From: an uncultured Alicyclobacillaceae bacterium
Lineage (GTDB): Bacteria > Bacillota > Bacilli > Alicyclobacillales > Alicyclobacillaceae
Assembly (NCBI GenBank): GCA_963788285.1
Contig: CAWBGB010000009.1
Span: 5,375-69,374, forward strand
DNA length: 64,000 nt
Direction: 5' to 3'
The position numbers and the translations under genes were made by a program. The notes beneath the pieces were generated by a model that was given only the letters and a program-made list of their open reading frames with translations, did no database searches and was not told the origin of the DNA. Of the stretch, positions 10,908 to 61,159 are shown piece after piece. The first letter of the stretch is position 1. Each line of letters begins with the position of its first letter.

Positions 10908-13160
10908 TCACGCACTGACTTTTTTAATCGGTGCAAATTTCGCCAACAATTTCTTCACCCCCACCGGTGCAGGAAACGCGATGGTGAGTTCCATATCTTC
11001 GCCGTCGCCCTTCTTTTCAACAATCGTGCCAATGCCCCATTTACGGTGTTCTACCTTGTCGCCAACGCCGTACTCCACACTGAGATCCGCACCAAAAGAC
11101 GGCGGAATGTTGGAAATGGGCGCGCGCCCTGAGGAATCCGAGCGGGGCGTCCAAGCGGTCCGCTGGCGACTCATCCCGTCATCGCGTTCCAGGTACTCCT
11201 GAGGCATCTCTGCCAAAAAACGCGACGGCGTGGAGTGCCGAAATTGCCCGAAGATGGTTCTCGCGGTACACGTGGTCACGTACAATTTCTGCTTTGCCCG
11301 CGTAATCCCTACATAGCATAACCTGCGCTCTTCTTCCATTTCCGAATCCGAGTCCAGTGACCGGCTGTGTGGGAACAAACCTTCTTCAAACCCAGGCAGA
11401 AACACAATCGGAAACTCAAGGCCCTTGGCGCTGTGCAACGTCATCAGGACAACCTGGTTCCCCTCTCCGGATGGCGCAATTTCTTCCGGTTTTCCACCGT
11501 TCATATCCGTATCTGCGACCAAAGCCACTTCCGTGAGGAACGCGGTGAGTTCATCCTCGTCACTGGTTTGCCAACGCGCGTCGTACTCCCGTGTCACCGA
11601 GAGGAATTCCTGCAAGTTTTCAATGCGGGCATCCGCTTCGAGCGACCGCTCCGATCTCAACGCTTCAATATACCCGGTATGCTTCAAAATTTCCTCCGTC
11701 AATTCCGTGACACTGAGGAATTCCTTCATTTTCAGCAGGTTGTCCATCATCTGGACAAAACCGCTGAGGGCGCCCAGAGCCCGACCGCTGATGCCGGCTT
11801 GACTCGCTCGCTCCAGCGCCTGGTACAAAGATAATCCGTATTGGTTCGCTAACGTCTGCAACTTTTCAACCGTTCCGGCACCAATCCCACGCTTAGGCAC
11901 GTTGATGATGCGCTCCAAGCTGATATCGTCGTGCGGGTTCACCATCAGCCGCAAGTATGCCAGGATATCCTTGATTTCCTTTCGGTCATAGAACTTTAGT
12001 CCACCAAAAATGCGATACGGGATACCTGCCTGCAGAAACACTTCTTCAATAACTCGGGACTGCGCGTTGACGCGATACAACACTGCACAGTCATCGTAGC
12101 GGCCGCCGTTTTTCACATGCTCCTGGATCCGCTCGACAATATACCGCGCCTCCACTTTCTCATCCATCGCCTGAAACAGGACCGCTTTGTCCCCCTCCGG
12201 GTTTTCCGTCCACAGCGTCTTTTCTTTGCGCTGCACGTTGTTCTTGATGACGTGGTTGGCAATGTTGAGAATGGTCTTGGTCGACCGGTAATTTTGTTCC
12301 AGGCGGATGACTTTGGCATCGGGATAATCCCGTTCAAACTCTAGAAAGTTCTGGATGTCCGCCCCGCGCCAACTGTAAATGGATTGATCCGAATCACCGA
12401 CCACACATACGTTCTTCCGCTTCTCTGCCAGCAACTTCACAAGTCGGTACTGCGCGTGGTTGGTGTCCTGGTACTCATCTACGTGAATGTAGTGGAACTT
12501 ATTGTGATAAAACTGCAGCACATCCGGATGTTTTTCAAACAACTGCACCGTCTTCATAATCAGGTCGTCGAAGTCCAGCGCGTTGTTGGTCTTCAGGCGC
12601 CGCTCGTATTCCAGATATACGTCGCCTACCGTCACTTGCCATGGATTCCCGGCCATGTCGCGAACTTTACCTGCTGTCTTCAGTTCGTTTTTCGCGGAAT
12701 TGATGGCAGACTGAATCGCCCGTGGTTCAAAGCGTTTGGAATCAATGTTTAAATCGGACAGAATCCGCTTGATGGTCGCCAGTTGATCTCCGTCGTCGAG
12801 GATGGTAAACCCCCGCTGATAGCCGAGTTGCTCGATATCCCTGCGCAAAATCCGTACGCACATCGAGTGGAACGTCATCGCCCAAATGTCGTTGGCTGCC
12901 GGACCCACCAGTTGCTCAATCCGCTCCCGCATCTCCCGTGCCGCCTTATTGGTAAACGTGATGGCCAAGATACTCCATGGCGGCACGCGCCGTGCGGCCA
13001 TCAACCAGGCAATGCGCCGCGTCAGCACACTGGTCTTGCCGCTACCTGCCCCGGCGATGATCAGCAACGGGCCCTCCGTCGTTTCCACCGCCGTGCGCTG
13101 CTCTGGGTTGAGCCCAGACACAATGCGCTCCATCTCGGGCGTTACTGAAAACACGTCCAT
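10908..13160 (-). CDS. pcrA: ATP-dependent DNA helicase PcrA (UvrD/Rep family)
   Basis: GAGSGKT Walker A, VDEYQDTN, TLHSAKGLEF, VGITRAK motifs, plus a C-terminal KWGIGTIV Tudor-like tail. Start at ATG 13160 with SD AAAGGTGGA. Confidence 0.9.
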   Translation of the reverse strand: MDVFSVTPEMERIVSGLNPEQRTAVETTEGPLLIIAGAGSGKTSVLTRRIAWLMAARRVPPWSILAITFTNKAAREMRERIEQLVGPAANDIWAMTFHSMCVRILRRDIEQLGYQRGFTILDDGDQLATIKRILSDLNIDSKRFEPRAIQSAINSAKNELKTAGKVRDMAGNPWQVTVGDVYLEYERRLKTNNALDFDDLIMKTVQLFEKHPDVLQFYHNKFHYIHVDEYQDTNHAQYRLVKLLAEKRKNVCVVGDSDQSIYSWRGADIQNFLEFERDYPDAKVIRLEQNYRSTKTILNIANHVIKNNVQRKEKTLWTENPEGDKAVLFQAMDEKVEARYIVERIQEHVKNGGRYDDCAVLYRVNAQSRVIEEVFLQAGIPYRIFGGLKFYDRKEIKDILAYLRLMVNPHDDISLERIINVPKRGIGAGTVEKLQTLANQYGLSLYQALERASQAGISGRALGALSGFVQMMDNLLKMKEFLSVTELTEEILKHTGYIEALRSERSLEADARIENLQEFLSVTREYDARWQTSDEDELTAFLTEVALVADTDMNGGKPEEIAPSGEGNQVVLMTLHSAKGLEFPIVFLPGFEEGLFPHSRSLDSDSEMEEERRLCYVGITRAKQKLYVTTCTARTIFGQFRHSTPSRFLAEMPQEYLERDDGMSRQRTAWTPRSDSSGRAPISNIPPSFGADLSVEYGVGDKVEHRKWGIGTIVEKKGDGEDMELTIAFPAPVGVKKLLAKFAPIKKVSA

Positions 13161-13324: not shown

Positions 13325-13400
13325 CGGAATGTAGCTCAGGTGGTAGAGCGCACGGTTCGGGACCGTGAGGCCGCAGGTTCGAGTCCTGTCATTCCGACCA
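13325..13400 (+). tRNA. tRNA-Pro (anticodon CGG), CCA encoded
   Basis: Hand-folded cloverleaf: acceptor CGGAATG/CATTCCG, D stem GCTC/GAGC, anticodon stem CACGG/CCGTG with loop TT-CGG-GA (G37), T arm GCAGG-TTCGAGT-CCTGT, discriminator A, CCA. Confidence 0.9.
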
Positions 13401-16114: not shown

Positions 16115-16277
16115 CACAAGCGATTTGCTAGATTCTACACCGCGACGAAAACCGCTAAAATATCAATTCTAACCGTCCCTTCTATGGTTCGAAAAAACCT
16201 AAAAAAGAGTGACAAAAAACTGAACATTCCCACGAAATTATAGATATCACGTTGTCGTCACTCGAGGGGGTATCCGT

Positions 16278-18656
16278 GTGAACCTGATAGACCTTTTGGA
16301 ACACAGTGTCCGTGCGCACGGAGGGAAGGAATGTCTCCGCTACAAACAAGGGGACCGATACGTCTCCATGACGTACGACGAATTCTGGAAGTCCATCTTG
16401 GCGTGCGTTGGCGGTCTGCGTCAGATTGGCGTCAAGGCGGGTGACAAGGTCGCTATCCTCGCGAACAACTGCCCGCAATGGGCCATCTCCGACTACGCCA
16501 TCCTGGCTATGGGCGCCGTGGTGGTCCCTGTGTATCCGACGCTACCCGCAGATCAGGTGGGGTACATTCTGGAAAACGCGGAAGTGTCCGTCTGTATCGT
16601 AGAGGATGAACAACAGTATGCAAAAATTCACTCGCAACGTTCTCCAAACCTGAAGCTGGCCGTGGTCATCCGGCACGAACACATGCATGACGTAGAGACC
16701 TCTGGTTTGCCTTGGCACCGATTCGATGAACTTATCGCACTCGGTCAGGAAGTCCCGTGGTCGAAAAAGTCCCCCGCAGATATTGATGCAGAAACACTCG
16801 CCACCATCGTTCACACTTCCGGGACGTCCGGCAAGCCAAAAGGCGTCATGCTGACCCATCGCAACGTCGTCTCCAACGTCACAGCGTGCCTCAGCGTGGC
16901 CCCTGTGTACGCCACCGATGTTTTGTTGTCCTATCTTCCGCTGTCTCATATTTTTGAACGGACCGTCGGTCAGTTTGCGGCACTGTCGGCAGGCAGTTGT
17001 ATTGCCTATGCTGAAAACATCGAGTCCATCCCGAAGAACATTCTGGAAGTTCGCCCAACCATTCTCGTCACCGTCCCTCGACTGTTGGAGAAAGTATACG
17101 GAAAGGTTATGGACACGGTGGCCAATTTGCCATCGCCTATCCGCTCCTTGCTGCAGTCTGGCATTCGTGAGGGCAAATCTTCGGGCTTGACCTACCGACT
17201 GGTCGACAGGCTGGTCTACAAAAAAATCCGCAACGGCCTTGGAGGCAGAATGCGCGTGGTGGTCTCCGGAGGGGCCGCACTATCTCCAGACGTAGCCAAT
17301 TTTCTCCTTCACGCCGGCGTTCCTGTGGTTGAAGGTTACGGAATGACGGAATCCGCTCCGGTCATTTGCGTGAACCCGCCGCACGACATCCGCCCCGGTA
17401 CAGTGGGGAAACCGGTGGAAGGCGTTACTGTCCGACTCGCCGAAGACGGAGAGCTACTCGTCAAAGGCCCCAATGTCATGGTCGGCTACTACCGAAATGA
17501 AGAGGCCACCCAGGAAGCGTTGGAAGGCGGTTGGCTGCGCACCGGTGACATTGCGGAGATTGAGGACGGGTACGTGAAGATTGTCGATAGAAAAAAGCAC
17601 ATCTTGGTCCTTGCGACTGGAAAAAATGTCGCCCCCGCCCCCATTGAAGGTGCCATCATGACAAGTTCCTACGTCTCGTCTGCCATTCTCATTGGAGATG
17701 GCCGTAAGTACGTGACCTGTCTATTGTCTCCCAGCATCCAAGAACTGCGCCCGGTGGCCGCCAAGTTGGATCTCCCAGACAATCCAGAAACCTGGGTCAC
17801 CCACCCTGAAATTCGCAATCTCTACGCACGCGAAGTGGAACAGAGAATCCGCGGCTTTGCACCGTTTGAACAGCCCAAGCGGGCGATTCTGATTGCAGAA
17901 GAACTGTCGGTCGAGTCTGGGGATTTAACACCGAGTCTGAAAGTCCGGAACAAGGTTGTCATGGCAAAATACGCGCGCCAAATTGAAGCTATGTATGAAG
18001 GTTCCGACTTTATTCCCTTGCTCAGCACTGGTCACGATGACGATGACAGCACCACACACAAAGATACACCGTCGGCACCGTCCATACTCACCGGGGATGG
18101 AGCCACAACTTCACCACCGAGACGAACACTCCGCCGCGGTCGGTATCTCCTAGCCGGTGGCATGGCCGCCGTGGTGCTGGCTGGCATTGTGGCTCTGAGT
18201 TCCCCTCACCTACCTAAGAATCTAGACATCCTGAGTATGGTGAAAGGCATCCACAATACGAACAGCAAGATCAATGATGAAAACAATCAAATTGTGTCTA
18301 GCCTACAGCACATCGACCAGTTGGCAGGTTCTACAAAAACGATGTCTGGGGATTTGCAGACACTGTCCGCTGGCGTCGGTACAGATACAGCCACGCTGTC
18401 TCACTTACAAGACCTGAGTCAACAGGAAGTCGACCTCAGTCAGCAGTTCTACGGACTGGCGCAGAAGTTGCAGACCGACATGGCTTCCCTAGGCGAGTCA
18501 TCCGGGAATCAAAACCAAAGTGCCAAAACCATGAACACGTCTGCACAGAGCATTTCTTCAACACTCTCGCAAATGATCAACGTCAACCATGAAATCTCGG
18601 GTCAATTGCAGACCGCAGACAGTAAAGCCAGAGTCATTGCGGGTGAAATGCCGTGA
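16278..18656 (+). CDS. long-chain acyl-CoA synthetase (COG1022/FAA1 type) fused to a C-terminal TM helix and a Q/S/T/N/L-rich helical module
   Basis: GTG start with SD GAGGGGG. Motifs TSGTSGKPKGVMLTHRN, GYGMTE, TGDIAE, DRKKHILVLATGKNVAPAPIE, LTPSLKVRNKV, and the usual enzyme end ...YARQIEAMYEG (~nt 18000). It then continues through an acidic/ST linker, PRRTLRRGR, a TM helix YLLAGGMAAVVLAGIVALS (~18144-18200) and ~150 aa of low-complexity helical sequence ending ...SKARVIAGEMP. Confidence 0.85.
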   Translation: MNLIDLLEHSVRAHGGKECLRYKQGDRYVSMTYDEFWKSILACVGGLRQIGVKAGDKVAILANNCPQWAISDYAILAMGAVVVPVYPTLPADQVGYILENAEVSVCIVEDEQQYAKIHSQRSPNLKLAVVIRHEHMHDVETSGLPWHRFDELIALGQEVPWSKKSPADIDAETLATIVHTSGTSGKPKGVMLTHRNVVSNVTACLSVAPVYATDVLLSYLPLSHIFERTVGQFAALSAGSCIAYAENIESIPKNILEVRPTILVTVPRLLEKVYGKVMDTVANLPSPIRSLLQSGIREGKSSGLTYRLVDRLVYKKIRNGLGGRMRVVVSGGAALSPDVANFLLHAGVPVVEGYGMTESAPVICVNPPHDIRPGTVGKPVEGVTVRLAEDGELLVKGPNVMVGYYRNEEATQEALEGGWLRTGDIAEIEDGYVKIVDRKKHILVLATGKNVAPAPIEGAIMTSSYVSSAILIGDGRKYVTCLLSPSIQELRPVAAKLDLPDNPETWVTHPEIRNLYAREVEQRIRGFAPFEQPKRAILIAEELSVESGDLTPSLKVRNKVVMAKYARQIEAMYEGSDFIPLLSTGHDDDDSTTHKDTPSAPSILTGDGATTSPPRRTLRRGRYLLAGGMAAVVLAGIVALSSPHLPKNLDILSMVKGIHNTNSKINDENNQIVSSLQHIDQLAGSTKTMSGDLQTLSAGVGTDTATLSHLQDLSQQEVDLSQQFYGLAQKLQTDMASLGESSGNQNQSAKTMNTSAQSISSTLSQMINVNHEISGQLQTADSKARVIAGEMP

Positions 18657-18673
18657 CGGGGGAGGGTTTGTAG

Positions 18674-19183
18674 ATGTGGAAAAAGTGGGTACTGTACATT
18701 GCCAATGTGATTGTTGTTGGCGTACTTGTACAACAGGTGATGACCACGACCTATCTAGCCAAAATTGACTATGGACTTCACTCTAGCCTTAATTCTACCA
18801 AACAGTTGGCGAGCATCGAGTCGTCCATCATTGAAAAAAACCATGCACTGCAAAGCATGGCGTCAACGACCAAATCCATGAGTGACCAACTGGGTTTGGT
18901 ATTGCAAGTGAACATGGCCATTGACAAGAACATCCACGCGATTGATGCGCTGAACCAGTCGACGCTCGATGTAAATCAAACCCTCGTCGGACTGGGCAAG
19001 CAGAGTCAGGTCAACCTCGCGTCCATCGCCAGGCAACTAGACCAATTAAACAGTGCTATCGGGCAGATGGGCGGTCAGCTCGGCCAACTCCAAGGAACGA
19101 TTCAACTCGATGCCTCCACGTTGAACGATATGAAAGCGCAAACAGACCAAATGAACTCGAAAGTTCCGGGGGTGACACCGTGA
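18674..19183 (+). CDS. single-pass membrane protein with Q/S/T/N/L-rich helical module (paralogue 1)
   Basis: 169 aa. SD GGGGGAGGG. MWKKW + TM helix VLYIANVIVVGVLV, then a Pro/Cys/Trp-free Q/S/N/L-rich sequence ending QMNSKVPGVTP. Confidence 0.7.
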   Translation: MWKKWVLYIANVIVVGVLVQQVMTTTYLAKIDYGLHSSLNSTKQLASIESSIIEKNHALQSMASTTKSMSDQLGLVLQVNMAIDKNIHAIDALNQSTLDVNQTLVGLGKQSQVNLASIARQLDQLNSAIGQMGGQLGQLQGTIQLDASTLNDMKAQTDQMNSKVPGVTP

Positions 19184-19698
19184 ACATACTGAAGGCGATT
19201 CAATGGCGCAAATGGATCTTTGTTGCAGGCCTCGTCGGGCTCGGAATCAACGGATTGGTTCAAGTCACTCTGCAACGGGATATGCGAGACAAGACATCCG
19301 TCCTTGCCTCGCAAGTGCAGCAAGCACAAACGCTGAGTGGGAAAATGACGGACAGTTTGTCGGGCCTGCCAGTGGTCGAACATCAGAGCGAAGCCATGGC
19401 CTCGTCACTCCAACAACTGTCTTCCCAGACGTCAGACATGGATCATGGTTTAGCCGTCCTGCAGCAGACCGTACAAGGCATCGCGAACGCGGTTCAATCG
19501 GTAGGAGCGAGCACCTCCACGAGCAGCACCTCCCTGACGCAGGCGCTGCACGCTGCGCAAGCGCTGCTGTCGACCCTGCAATCGATTCAGAACACAAATG
19601 GAAGCGTACTCGCCGACTTGAACCAGATGGAAACCGACCAGCAGGCTATCAACGCCGATTTGAATGCGATGAATCAAAAAATGGCATTGGTTCCATAA
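19180..19698 (+). CDS. single-pass membrane protein with Q/S/T/N/L-rich helical module (paralogue 2)
   Basis: 172 aa. GTG start overlaps the upstream stop (GTGA). WRKW + TM IFVAGLVGLGINGLV. Tail AMNQKMALVP. Confidence 0.7.
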   Translation: MNILKAIQWRKWIFVAGLVGLGINGLVQVTLQRDMRDKTSVLASQVQQAQTLSGKMTDSLSGLPVVEHQSEAMASSLQQLSSQTSDMDHGLAVLQQTVQGIANAVQSVGASTSTSSTSLTQALHAAQALLSTLQSIQNTNGSVLADLNQMETDQQAINADLNAMNQKMALVP

Positions 19699-19717
19699 AA
19701 ACAAAGGAGGAAGCCCT

Positions 19718-20518
19718 ATGCAACTGGGACTTGAATCGCGGAAACGAATCGGTATCCTGGCAGCGTTGGCTGTGGTCGTCGTGAGCGGTGGATACGCTGC
19801 TGTCAAGAACGTGAGCGGATGGACAGTTCCAAGGAACAACCTGTTTTCACTCATCGGAAACCTGAACACAACCACCAGCCAAGTGCTGAGCAATACTTCT
19901 GCCCTGCGCACACAAGTGAGTGGCGTTGCCAACCAGTTGGCAGAGCTGAACACACAGTCCAACATCCTGCAACAGCAATTGCAAACCAGCGACGACTTGG
20001 GGAGTCAACTCAACACGCAAGTGCAGCTGACAACTAACGCTGTCTCTCTCATGCGGCAGATTTTACAACGACAGATTCAAACGGAATCGTTGACAAACAC
20101 TCTCGCTTCCAAATCGAGTCAGCTACAAGGCACTGTGCAGCAAAGTGCCGAAACGTTGGGAGAGCTCCAAGGGGCAATTCAAGGAAGCTTGAACCAGTCC
20201 GTCGCGCTACACAACCAAATGGGAAGCTTGCTTAACGAAATGTCCGTGTCGGAAGACGAATTCAAGTTCTTCGGTCAAGTGAAGAATCTGTTGACTCTAC
20301 CTAGCAACGTGTTGCAGCAACTGCTGGGCTCCCTGTTCGGGAAAGCCCCCGCATCTGGCAGCGGAGCCAAGTCTTCTGGATCAATCTTATCCGGCGTTCC
20401 TTCCCAGGTGCTCGGTTCCAATCCAGTGACCGGCGCTGCAGGAAACTTGCTCGGTTCCAATCCAGTGACTGGCGCCGCAGGAAACTTGCTCGGTCCCGTC
20501 ACAAACCTGCTGCCATAG
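19718..20518 (+). CDS. single-pass membrane protein with Q/S/T/N/L-rich helical module plus Gly/Ser/Pro-rich repeat tail (paralogue 3)
   Basis: 266 aa. SD AAAGGAGGAAG. SRKR + TM IGILAALAVVVVSGG. Helical module, then FGKAPASGSGAKSSGS and a duplicated LGSNPVTGAAGNL, ending TNLLP. Confidence 0.7.
   Translation: MQLGLESRKRIGILAALAVVVVSGGYAAVKNVSGWTVPRNNLFSLIGNLNTTTSQVLSNTSALRTQVSGVANQLAELNTQSNILQQQLQTSDDLGSQLNTQVQLTTNAVSLMRQILQRQIQTESLTNTLASKSSQLQGTVQQSAETLGELQGAIQGSLNQSVALHNQMGSLLNEMSVSEDEFKFFGQVKNLLTLPSNVLQQLLGSLFGKAPASGSGAKSSGSILSGVPSQVLGSNPVTGAAGNLLGSNPVTGAAGNLLGPVTNLLP
20411..20488 (+). repeat. 2 x 39-nt in-frame tandem repeat inside paralogue 3
   Basis: ctcggttccaatccagtgacYggcgcYgcaggaaacttg occurs twice (20411-20449, 20450-20488). 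The two differences are both synonymous third positions. A degenerate third copy follows. Confidence 0.9.
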
Positions 20519-20554
20519 ACTCGCGAGCAACCTGTCGATGAAGGAGGCTACAAC

Positions 20555-21097
20555 GTGAACTCGACACGTATTCCATGGAAGATCAGTACCATCGTGGTTA
20601 CCCTGTTTTCGTTCGCGGGCGTTGCCGCGTTTGTCTATAGTCTGCTCCAGCTGACTGCCATCCAGGCGCAGATGGATCAGACGATGGAGGCTATCCGGAC
20701 GTCCGTAGGTACTACCAGCCAATTGGTCGGACAGACTTCCAAAGCGCTGCAACCGCTCACAAAAACAACACAGGCACTGTTGGCCATTGAACAAAACCAA
20801 CAAGACACAACGTCTCACCTGCGCTCGATGAACAACCACTTGCGCCAAACTGCTAACATTGAATCGGTTATTATCGAAAGGTTGGATTCGCTGAACGCTA
20901 GTACAAGCCAGATCAGTGAACAGCTGTCCAGTATGCAAAACACGAACGCCGAACTATTGTCGCAGAGTCGACAATCCGTTGCGCAAGCGAATCAGGAAAC
21001 AGCAGGCGTCGCAGATCTCAACGGCATGACGTCCACTTCCATTCAGGAGATGCATCAGTTGAACGGAAAGCTGAGTGTTTTACGCCTACTTCCGTAG
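20555..21097 (+). CDS. single-pass membrane protein with Q/S/T/N/L-rich helical module (paralogue 4)
   Basis: 180 aa. GTG start with SD GAAGGAGG. TM ISTIVVTLFSFAGVAAFVYSLL. Tail QLNGKLSVLRLLP. Confidence 0.7.
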   Translation: MNSTRIPWKISTIVVTLFSFAGVAAFVYSLLQLTAIQAQMDQTMEAIRTSVGTTSQLVGQTSKALQPLTKTTQALLAIEQNQQDTTSHLRSMNNHLRQTANIESVIIERLDSLNASTSQISEQLSSMQNTNAELLSQSRQSVAQANQETAGVADLNGMTSTSIQEMHQLNGKLSVLRLLP

Positions 21098-21198: not shown

Positions 21199-21621
21199 TT
21201 GGCGATGATGTCTGACGAAGCCATGGCGGATCTTCTGTCCCATACTCGACTGATTGCATCGGTGGGGCTGGTCAACGACCCGAGTCGACCGAGCTACGAA
21301 GTCGCCAAATACCAACAGTCACAGGGGTACAAGGTCGTTCCTGTCAACCCAAACGAGGACTCTGTACTTGGACACAAGGCGGTAGACACCGTCAACCAGA
21401 TTGCTGAGCCGATTGACGTCGTCAACGTCTTTGTAAACGGCCGTGAGGCCCCAGCTATCGCGGAAGCGGCCGTTCGTGCGGGTGCTAAGGCGTTGTGGCT
21501 ACAGCCTGGTGTCGACAGTCCAGAAGCAGTGCAAACGGCCAGGGCCGGGGGATTGACCGTGGTTTCCAACAAGTGCTTTATGCGCGAGCACCAACGGTTG
21601 CTGTCTGACTTACCTATGTAG
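21199..21621 (+). CDS. CoA-binding domain protein (YccU/YneT-like)
   Basis: 140 aa. IASVGLVNDPSRPSYEVAKYQQSQGYKVVPVNPN...IDVVNVF is a typical CoA_binding_2 fold. TTG 21199 (SD AAAGGGG 8 nt upstream) or ATG 21205. Confidence 0.75.
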   Translation: MAMMSDEAMADLLSHTRLIASVGLVNDPSRPSYEVAKYQQSQGYKVVPVNPNEDSVLGHKAVDTVNQIAEPIDVVNVFVNGREAPAIAEAAVRAGAKALWLQPGVDSPEAVQTARAGGLTVVSNKCFMREHQRLLSDLPM

Positions 21622-44087: not shown

Positions 44088-44457
44088 TCACAGCCCTCCT
44101 TTCCTCCATCGTAGAACCGAGCAATTTGTCAACATTGAAATGGTAGTATACGCGATGGAACTACGCAATCAAAGCCCGCCAGTCGGCGGGCTCCCAATCG
44201 AGCGATTTCAAAAATTCCACTATAGTGGTTCCCTCGCGGCTCAGCCACATTAGGCAAAACCTTCATCCGGTAATGCCTGTTAACCCAGTTGCGTCTCTCG
44301 ACGTTTGCGGGCAGTGGCGTGTGATCTATGCAGAAGCCTCACCTAACAAAGAAACCTATATGCAATTCCATGATGTCAAGCTACATCTATACAATAGCGG
44401 CTTTCCTCGAACAATCAAGACAAGTCAGTGTTACAATGTCCGCGAGGAGGTCTGGTT

Positions 44458-57851: not shown

Positions 57852-58108
57852 ACAGAAAATCCCTGCCCATTGGCAGAGAGTGGTTGTGGTCGGAAGTTGA
57901 TGAGAATTCCTCCAACGCAACCTCTCCTCGAAGGTTTCGTTCTACCTCTTCAGGCAGGTCTCCTGACTCTCAGCTCATGGAACCCATCAAACGCCTTCCC
58001 ACGAAAACGCAGTGACGTTGATCCATAAATCGCTGATTACAGTGGCGGGACCGTACCGGACTTTCACCGGTTTCCCTATTATCTCTGTAAACCAGAGCAC
58101 CTGAAGAG
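57852..58108 (-). promoter_or_regulatory. cobalamin (AdoCbl) riboswitch with terminator, controlling btuFCD-cobU-cobS
   Basis: Minus strand: P1 CTCTTCAGG...CCTGAAGAG. Core AATAGGGAAACCGGTGAAAGTCCGGTACGGTCCCGCCACTGTA. B12 box AGTCAGGAGACCTGCC. Terminator CTCTGCC-aatg-GGCAGGG + ATTTTCTGTT. Confidence 0.85.
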
Positions 58109-58218
58109 CTTTTCAATTTCGTTTGCATCATAGTGAATCGACGGAACAATGTCAATCGCCTTGGTCAGATAGCCACGAACGATGACGACGATATTTATGG
58201 TCCCTGGTCTCCAACCCA

Positions 58219-60662: not shown

Positions 60663-60922
60663 AAACAAAAGAAGCTACCTGCCTAAAGCAGATAGCTGTC
60701 ATTGCACATTCGTGCAGCGACACCGACCTATCGACCGTAGGTACAGGGTGTACAAGAAAGGCAGGTCTCCTGGCTCGGGGTCGTCACCTGCGATTCACCT
60801 TCCCAAGCGCTTGTGCACTCAGTGGTATCGAGAATCGAGGCTCACCCATACAGTGGCGGGACCGCACCGGACTTTCACCGGTTTCCCTATTATGTCACTC
60901 AGCGAAGTGAACACCTTTCTTG
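60663..60922 (-). promoter_or_regulatory. cobalamin (AdoCbl) riboswitch with terminator, controlling cobT-bluB/pduO
   Basis: Minus strand: P1 CAAGAAAGG...CCTTTCTTG. Core AATAGGGAAACCGGTGAAAGTCCGGTGCGGTCCCGCCACTGTA. B12 box AGCCAGGAGACCTGCC. Terminator AGCTATCTGC-tttag-GCAGGTAGCT + TCTTTTGTTT. Confidence 0.85.
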
Positions 60923-61159
60923 AATGTTTCGTTGTAAATCGCCTATCTACGCTTTGCGCTTAACAGAATACATAGTAATGCCAATGAGGGGTGATGTCCA
61001 GCTTTCGTACCACAGCCTCAATCTAGTTTCTCATGCGTTGTGGCCGCCAAAGAATCTCTGCCACTCAACTCCCCCTAACATAGTCTCTAATCGAGGCGTA
61101 GTTGCCTTAATCCTGTAGTAGGATTGCTCAATGCGACAACGCATTGCCCACGCCGTCGT

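Follow-up and report, generated by a model that had tools for sequence, protein, structure and literature searches.

Why does a long-chain acyl-CoA synthetase run on past its catalytic domain into a membrane helix and a long outer domain, and why do four small genes encoding the same kind of domain follow it? This question is raised by a stretch of 64,000 nucleotides from an uncultured Alicyclobacillaceae bacterium (contig CAWBGB010000009.1, positions 5,375 to 69,374 of the forward strand; in the following called the window), in which five ORFs (open reading frames) of the + strand are packed within 16278-21097. According to the sequence comparisons and structure predictions reported here, the five membrane-anchored modules appear to be a gene cassette of an undescribed kind, narrowly distributed in spore-forming Bacilli and older than its fusion to the ligase. 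Our preferred, still tentative explanation is that the modules assemble in parallel into a hetero-oligomeric stalk on the outer side of the membrane, which carries the ligase at its cytoplasmic base.

A preliminary description of this locus had listed the coordinates, lengths, spacers and start signals of the five genes, and these were exactly reproduced with the ORF list. The spacers from gene 1 to gene 5 are 17, -4, 19 and 36 nt, and each of the five starts is preceded either by a Shine-Dalgarno sequence of the GGAGG type or by a GTGA overlap. The parts of the five genes are as follows (TM, transmembrane; aa, amino acids):

16278-18656, + strand: fusion gene, 792 aa (ORF)
16278-18005, + strand: acyl-CoA synthetase domain, residues 1-576 (Pfam)
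18006-18119, + strand: acidic Ser/Thr/Pro-rich linker, residues 577-614 (sequence)
18120-18200, + strand: Arg patch, residues 615-622 (RRTLRRGR), and single TM helix of module 1, residues ~623-641 (hydropathy)
18201-18656, + strand: outer domain of module 1, residues 642-792 (151 residues), predicted heptad coiled coil, C-terminus ...DSKARVIAGEMP
18674-19183, + strand: module 2, 169 aa, with a short basic N-terminus, a TM helix, a predicted coiled coil of ~145 aa and the C-terminus MNSKVPGVTP
19180-19698, + strand: module 3, 172 aa, C-terminus MNQKMALVP; its start overlaps the stop of module 2 (GTGA)
19718-20518, + strand: module 4, 266 aa, with a TM helix, a predicted coiled coil of ~145 aa up to EFKFFGQ and a variable Gly/Ser/Pro-rich tail
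20555-21097, + strand: module 5, 180 aa, with a TM helix, a predicted coiled coil of ~149 aa, a near-invariant ALxPL motif and the C-terminus LNGKLSVLRLLP

The first domain of the fusion protein is, by its sequence, an ANL-superfamily long-chain acyl-CoA synthetase of the COG1022 type. Pfam assigns AMP-binding to residues 7-405 (E value 3.5e-83, 280 bits at a cut-off of 29.9) and AMP-binding_C_3 to residues 442-575 (42.9 bits at a cut-off of 20.8), and in the translation the core motifs TSGTSGKPKG (P-loop), GYGMTE, TGD and DRKK as well as the C-terminal Lys are intact. None of the NCBIfam equivalogs reached its cut-off with the ligase, the best being FadD11 with 311 bits against 950, and the nearest solved structures are remote (<=127 bits). 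The TM helix is indicated by hydropathy windows of 1.7-2.1 that start at residues 621-625 of the fusion. Pfam and the sequence therefore agree with the preliminary description that a full ligase continues through a linker, an Arg patch and one TM helix into about 150 further residues.

The window belongs to a near relative of A. pomorum DSM 14955, which encodes a fusion that is 90% identical to that of the window and is followed by the same four genes; the same cluster was found on two metagenome contigs. A frameshift or assembly artefact was considered as an explanation of the fusion and is ruled out by its presence in independent assemblies. An exact look-up of the fusion protein returned no database record, and a word-index homology search with its C-terminal 202 aa returned no match. 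In comparison with A. pomorum, the ligase domain has a ratio of nonsynonymous to synonymous substitution rates of 0.11 and the linker with the TM segment one of 0.73, while the five modules have values of 0.09-0.23, that of the outer domain of module 1 being 0.23. The linker, whose length differs among lineages, evolves almost neutrally together with the TM segment, and the five genes are real and subject to purifying selection.

The modules had been described as rich in Gln, Ser, Thr, Asn and Leu and poor in Pro, Cys and Trp, which matches the counts: in the five window tails these five residues make up ~47-55%, Cys 0, Trp 0-1% and Pro 1-3%. As a hallmark of the modules this composition holds within the window, but not among its relatives. 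The orthologues of distant, high-GC relatives are rich in Ala, Arg, Leu and Glu, and the bias is therefore lineage-specific. What is common to all five families is a periodicity. A hydropathy period of exactly 3.5 residues is dominant in each of them (power 86-123 in comparison to a mean of 7; 100 for module 1), unbroken heptads reach a number of ~16 in module 3, and in the pooled heptads the positions a and d are 65% Leu, Ile, Val, Met or Phe. This corresponds to a canonical left-handed coiled-coil signal in the sequences of all five families, and the expectation of an oligomerisation signal was borne out in this respect. The flanking positions are unusually poor in charge for such a pattern: classic two- and three-stranded coils have charged e and g positions, whereas e and g are rich in Asn and Ala here, e being 20% Asn and 15% charged and g 22% charged, against 25-28% charged residues at b, c and f. 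An uncharged e/g flank would fit a wider helix interface.

For module 5 AlphaFold2 predicts, from an alignment of 52 sequences, a single helix from residue 8 to 176 with a pLDDT (predicted local distance difference test) of 90.3 and values of 80-90 for all five models; with eight sequences the helix extends over residues 8-178 at a pLDDT of 81.5. The outer domains are indel-free down to ~20% identity, as judged from 11 loci for modules 1-4 and from the 52 sequences for module 5, and have a median length of 152 residues in module 1, 145 in modules 2 and 3 and 149 in module 5. At ~0.15 nm per residue this corresponds to a helix of ~21-22 nm. The coil of module 4 is of comparable length and is followed by the variable tail; this gene is the fourth and the longest one at all loci, and in high-GC relatives its tail is rich in Trp. 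The earlier idea of a folded helical bundle or repeat domain had to be abandoned in favour of one continuous coiled-coil helix, since both the AlphaFold2 model and the heptads speak for the latter. More specifically, a folded helical-repeat module or four-helix bundle is ruled out by the single predicted helix, and a helical hairpin by its straightness and by the lack of any conserved turn or indel.

Lys and Arg residues flank the TM helix more often on its N-terminal than on its C-terminal side in 75 of 96 sequences; the reverse holds for only three. In addition, the ligase requires ATP and CoA and lies N-terminal of the TM helix, so that for subunit 1 the coil can only lie outside. Both observations agree with the outside location of the modules that had been proposed from positive-inside reasoning. 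Taken together, sequence and model point to single-pass type II membrane proteins (N-terminus in, C-terminus out) with one predicted long helix each, and because all five straight helices are anchored at their N-termini, any co-assembly among them must be parallel.

The paralogy of the modules became clear when profiles built from 11 loci were compared with each other. The hhalign probability is 98.4% for modules 3 and 5 (E value 9e-15, full length and in register), 96.2% for modules 1 and 3, 92% for modules 2 and 5 and 88% for modules 1 and 2, whereas module 4 reaches 28-81% with the other modules. Weaker inputs gave less: the best BLAST E value within the window was 5e-5, a direct five-way alignment was poor, and shallow profiles yielded 40-77%. 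Accordingly, of the five paralogous helical domains that had been proposed, modules 1, 2, 3 and 5 are true paralogues by their profiles and module 4 is a more distant member. The four clear paralogues share a C-terminal cap with the pattern D/N-x-K, few hydrophobic residues and a Pro, of which every family keeps its own version (...IAxEMP, MNxKxPGV, MNQKTAxLP and LNxKLxxLRLLP). When their hydropathy profiles are anchored on the cap Lys, the best correlation is found at lag 0 for five of the six pairs.

At the 11 loci the cassette consists of five genes in identical order which are one-to-one best matches of each other. The spacers are tiny throughout, the junction of modules 2 and 3 overlaps by 4 nt at eight of the 11 loci, and at one of them (L029; such numbers denote the loci compared) all four junctions overlap. 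Not a single locus has lost or duplicated a module. BLAST searches with modules 1-5 against the orthologues at the same position in distant cassettes gave E values of 3e-14, 1.5e-16, 2e-15, 5e-9 and 2e-7. The recurrence of the cluster as well as of the fusion in related genomes, which the preliminary description had proposed to check by synteny, could thus be confirmed, and the cassette is found in three arrangements.

In the first arrangement it stands without a ligase in view. This is the case in Marininema (L038; 184/169/178/211/172 aa), on a JGI contig (L034; 180/169/202/202/184 aa) and on two Logan contigs (L029 with 177/168/170/204/171 aa and L030 with 180/168/177/239/174 aa), where it lies directly 3' of a Peptidase_S66 gene. 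The second arrangement is that of Effusibacillus consociatus, in which an unfused ligase of 616 aa (L039:5819-7669) ends 26 nt upstream of a cassette of 181/166/178/224/172 aa. This ligase has a C-terminal basic patch and hydrophobic tail of its own (KSKQRP-IWLYAAAGIIFGIIIRILV, ...KSKQRPIWLYAAAGIIFGIIIRILV) and looks, from its sequence, tail-anchored. As module 1 of Effusibacillus has a separate TM helix, splitting the fusion would not by itself yield this arrangement. The third arrangement is the in-frame fusion, which is carried by the lineage of the window, A. pomorum, A. contaminans, a JGI relative (L028), Alicyclobacillus sp. SO9 (816 aa) and an Alicyclobacillus metagenome-assembled genome (MAG; 805 aa). 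On the contigs of A. contaminans and of metagenomes that encode homologues of module 5 with 53-59% identity, the fusion and the four genes are present as well. The fusion is kept in five Alicyclobacillus lineages, and the three fused groups occupy three unrelated neighbourhoods, so that together with the adjoining ligase of Effusibacillus the link between ligase and modules holds beyond a single genome.

The outer domain of module 1 aligns without indels to standalone orthologues of 177-184 aa at L029, L030, L034, L038 and L039, which represent four or five lineages. According to these arrangements, the five-gene cassette is older than the ligase fusion, and in the Alicyclobacillaceae a long-chain acyl-CoA synthetase was tied to it by adjacency or fusion. 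The window ligase shares ~50-55% identity with each of three others, the fused enzymes of SO9 and the MAG and the free-standing one of A. shizuokensis, as would be expected if a single orthologous ligase had acquired the cassette and had lost it again here and there. The ligase of A. shizuokensis ends ~30 aa past the catalytic domain and shares with the window the neighbourhood CotF, DUF2512, ligase, CoA_binding_2 and DUF420. Of 20 fetched ligase homologues from other phyla none is followed by anything comparable, and a scan of 22 such loci revealed no similar small ORFs.

The family is small. When 1.84 billion cluster representatives were searched exhaustively by HMMER with the profile of module 5, only 48 matches were obtained, of which 46 are proteins of 163-204 aa matched nearly end to end and two are short fragments. 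The list stops sharply at this point, with no tail of coiled-coil noise or larger families. All named members that were looked up are annotated as "hypothetical protein"; they belong to A. tolerans, A. mengziensis, A. curvatus, Alicyclobacillus sp. SO9, Effusibacillus consociatus, Marininema halotolerans and Melghirimyces profundicolus. A profile re-search returned six proteins only, the scan of a single metagenome two short contigs only, and a tblastn search against plasmids no copy of the cassette.

None of these proteins could be assigned to a described family. For the modules, searches of Pfam, NCBIfam, PADLOC, PHROGs and PDB produced only coiled-coil noise, with E values of 1.8e-4 or weaker for the anti-phage and phage families of PADLOC and PHROGs, and a Foldseek search of PDB with the single-helix model gave 0 matches. 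The profile check proposed in the preliminary description thus revealed no confident family match in Pfam or NCBIfam, and the look-alikes which it had named, DUF948, YtxH and apolipoproteins, amount to sub-threshold coiled-coil noise. DUF948 reaches 21 bits (cut-off 37.2), DUF1664 27.8 bits with one orthologue (cut-off 34.6), and PF00015, the signalling domain of methyl-accepting chemotaxis proteins (MCPs), an E value of 0.69, with an E value of 2e-7 for the MCP structure 2ch7 and the module 3 profile. For Mce proteins, TIGR00996 gives 18.4 and 16.1 bits (E values 1e-3 and 5e-3; cut-off 140.5) in the helical tail only, and the Mce chains of PDB match the module profiles with E values of 0.09-0.4. 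Membership in the Mce, MCP and DUF1664 families was therefore rejected, all matches being sub-threshold. Searches of the literature found no paper describing the cassette.

Among the PDB matches of the profiles are designed helical barrels (sc-apCC-6, 5e-8), the MCP cytoplasmic domain, coronavirus HR1 (1.5e-4) and tropomyosin, while autotransporter stalks and Lpp, a known spacer between envelope layers, are weaker. HR1, autotransporter stalks, Lpp and the designed barrels have in common with the modules the heptads, a Leu/Ile core and flanks rich in Gln, Asn, Ser, Thr and Ala; judged from the sequences, this likeness reflects composition and periodicity and not descent. These proteins are homo-oligomers, whereas the cassette encodes five distinct, co-conserved chains, each with its own TM anchor. 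Nor is there a resemblance to pili. Inspection of the five N-termini revealed no prepilin-peptidase site (G/F-x-x-x-E), neither a pilus ATPase nor a platform gene lies near the window cassette, and at none of the loci are pilus or phage genes found beside it.

The preliminary description had also drawn a parallel to the mycobacterial mce1 operon. The Mce1 system comprises fadD5, yrbE1A/B and mce1A-F, and the helices of its paralogues are thought to form a hetero-oligomeric needle across the envelope, much as is proposed here for the modules. Like the cassette, it combines tandem, N-terminally anchored paralogues with a FadD-type ligase, and long helices are common to both. However, neither the five window modules nor 11 orthologues of module 3 have a Pfam match to the MCE (MlaD) domain, and the gene tables of the cassette loci contain neither a YrbE/MlaE permease nor a Mkl-type ATPase. 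The cassette has five paralogues and not six, each protein consists of a TM helix and one long helix, the ligase is fused or tail-anchored, the host is monoderm, and the sequence likeness is sub-threshold. The parallel seems to be a useful analogy that fails on every point of membership and does not extend further. A second known principle is vectorial acylation, in which a membrane-held ANL ligase activates and thereby traps incoming fatty acids, as in E. coli FadL-FadD, cyanobacterial Aas and eukaryotic ACSL/FATP. The fusion resembles these tethered synthetases in having an ANL long-chain ligase at the cytoplasmic membrane face. It differs from them in its anchor, which is C-terminal and extends to a predicted outside coiled coil of 150 residues with four paralogous partners. 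A fusion-like architecture was found neither in Pfam and NCBIfam nor at the 22 ligase loci from other phyla.

Several features around the cassette deserve mention. Two of them flank it in the window:

16208-16245, + strand: conserved upstream block GTGACAAAAAACTGAACATTCCCACGAAATTATAG, candidate promoter or operator (cross-genome conservation)
21199-21621, + strand: CoA_binding_2 gene, neighbour whose membership in the unit is uncertain

The upstream block GTGACAAAAAACTGAACATTCCCACGAAATTATAG is the sole upstream stretch that is kept among the window, A. pomorum and the JGI relative L028. No sporulation or ECF (extracytoplasmic function) sigma motif could be assigned to it by eye, and an Rfam scan gave no match in the cassette region. 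The CoA_binding_2 gene is located directly 3' of the unfused ligase in A. shizuokensis (L004:9879-10298) and 3' of the cassette in the window and in A. pomorum; it is not part of the units of SO9, the MAG and Effusibacillus and does not occur at the A. contaminans locus. Its association with the ligase at the window locus may be of older date. A small ORF with two TM helices (55 and 57 aa) lies directly 3' of the cassette in Marininema (L038:5000-5167) and Effusibacillus (L039:10614-10787), though not in the window, and could from its position be a sixth component in some lineages.

Peptidoglycan enzymes are encoded near the cassette at several loci, which may be due to chance: a Peptidase_S66 LD-carboxypeptidase at L029:6781-7707 and L030:516-1442, a LysM-M23 peptidase and a penicillin-binding protein at L034:11391-14249, and NlpC/P60 and YkuD proteins at L036:1990-3150 and 11119-11952. 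The tail of module 4 in the window contains a 39-bp tandem repeat (20408-20494, 2.2 copies) encoding LGSNPVTGAAGNL. A. pomorum has one copy fewer (L003:11441-12205), and on an ENA metagenome contig (L001:11045-11866) the repeat stretch is read in another frame, giving a product of 273 aa; length variation or an assembly error are both possible. A. pomorum and A. contaminans are listed without omega-alicyclic fatty acids and A. shizuokensis with omega-cycloheptane acids (PMC5023266). The two carriers of the cassette and the non-carrier thus differ in this trait, as far as three species can tell. Unrelated to the cassette, the window contains a tRNA-Pro(CGG) gene (13325-13400, + strand), two cobalamin riboswitches (57936-58119 and 60743-60933, - strand) and a magnesium M-box (44187-44357, - strand).

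What, then, might the cassette do? In the explanation that we prefer, although we would give it somewhat less than an even chance, the modules build a parallel hetero-oligomeric stalk on the outer side of the membrane, which has the ligase at its cytoplasmic base and handles fatty acids or similar hydrophobic carboxylates. The five chains would assemble side by side into one stalk projecting into the cell wall, and module 4 would add its variable tail at the far tip. A stalk is the most likely form because the chains have the same anchoring, an equal, indel-free length, a shared register from the N-x-K...P cap and translationally coupled genes, and a hetero-oligomer is suggested by strict co-retention, fixed order, overlapping genes and family-specific caps. 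In Alicyclobacillus a flexible linker joins the ligase in frame to subunit 1 at its cytoplasmic end, which would place ATP-driven activation of fatty acids at the base of the stalk; this is the least secure step. The complex might then capture, hand over or recycle free fatty acids at the interface of membrane and wall, the ligase giving the direction. The fatty acid role is weakly suggested by a single line of sequence evidence, the series from the standalone cassette over the adjacent, tail-anchored ligase to the fusion. A related but doubtful possibility is a passive conduit through the wall, in which a hetero-pentameric parallel coiled-coil tube would collect hydrophobic acids such as free fatty acids on the outer side of the membrane and deliver them to the ligase tethered at its base. 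This would be a Gram-positive, Mce-independent form of vectorial acylation, evolved from a free-standing envelope stalk in monoderm Bacilli.

Several observations weigh against a lipid-handling stalk. Nothing in the sequences is specific to lipid binding, modules 2-5 have no cytoplasmic domain, and a scan of the window for sigma-70 promoters and terminators was no better than with shuffled sequence. Four lineages (Marininema and three uncultured ones, L029/L030 and L034) have the cassette without the ligase, so its core function is independent of the ligase. In A. contaminans (L025:4466-8171 and L026:1-1513) an IS3-family element (HTH_Tnp_1 and rve) lies within the ligase part and splits it, while the C-terminal ORF of 365 aa and the four small genes are intact, which again makes the ligase an add-on and not the core. 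Conversely, A. shizuokensis (L004) has the orthologous ligase, with 52-53% identity, and is missing the cassette. The peptidoglycan enzymes near other loci would fit a wall-related role as well, and a hydrophobic stripe that is confined to a and d could also be that of separate dimers or trimers.

One rival explanation is a stalk acting as a scaffold or spacer of the envelope, by which the gap between membrane and wall would be set or sensed, or wall material tethered through the tail of module 4. It would be unrelated to lipids, the ligase having merely borrowed subunit 1 as a membrane anchor. We regard this as possible and, compared with the lipid stalk, as nearly as likely. A cassette that stands alone in four lineages is what would be expected of it, the constant, indel-free helix is ruler-like, peptidoglycan enzymes are nearby in three independent contexts, and the tail anchor of the Effusibacillus ligase itself suggests that membrane localisation as such is selected. 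For an anchor, however, a bare TM helix would suffice, yet the fusion to a full subunit has been retained in five lineages (37% identity of module 5), and ligase and cassette have moved jointly into three neighbourhoods. The peptidoglycan neighbours, moreover, lack conservation, and genes of this kind occur commonly in Bacilli.

The a/d-only stripe, on the other hand, together with the profile likeness to trimeric HR1, autotransporter stalks and Lpp, would fit five diverged duplicates that each form homo-oligomers, for example trimers, and act separately as surface fibres or as envelope proteins of stress or the sporulation stage. Endospore formation is common to all identified carriers, and spore genes are located close by (CotF in the window, spo0A and YutH at L029, gerP at L038). 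One-to-one retention in fixed order, 4-nt overlaps and the lack of any loss or duplication are hard to reconcile with independent proteins, and so are the distinctive C-terminal motif of each family and the equal length and register across families. As these are hallmarks of obligate hetero-oligomers, we consider separate homo-oligomers unlikely. Finally, the modules could be divergent members of a known helical family that sequence searches did not recognise, such as a Mce needle, a MCP hairpin, DUF948/YtxH/DUF1664 or apolipoprotein-like proteins, to which the weak matches to TIGR00996, 2ch7, DUF1664 and Mce chains would point. These matches are below the curated cut-offs, partial, and found amid dozens of unrelated or designed coiled coils. 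With MCE domain and permease missing, a straight predicted helix in place of the MCP hairpin, and an exhaustive search ending at 48 nearly all full-length small proteins, this last explanation seems highly improbable.

The taxonomic range of these findings is narrow, as it comprises 48 sequence clusters, and type strains with the cassette, A. pomorum DSM 14955 and Effusibacillus consociatus, are obtainable for experiments. The series of standalone cassette, adjacent ligase and fusion is a textbook gene-fusion clue and connects an orphan complex with fatty acid activation in a way that can be tested. Free fatty acids are toxic uncouplers for acidophiles, and how hydrophobic molecules pass through the monoderm wall to the membrane is poorly understood. 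The predicted length of ~21 nm is comparable to that of the inner zone of the Gram-positive wall. If the five chains indeed form one stalk, it would represent a new type of bacterial envelope assembly, built solely from TM-anchored coiled coils.

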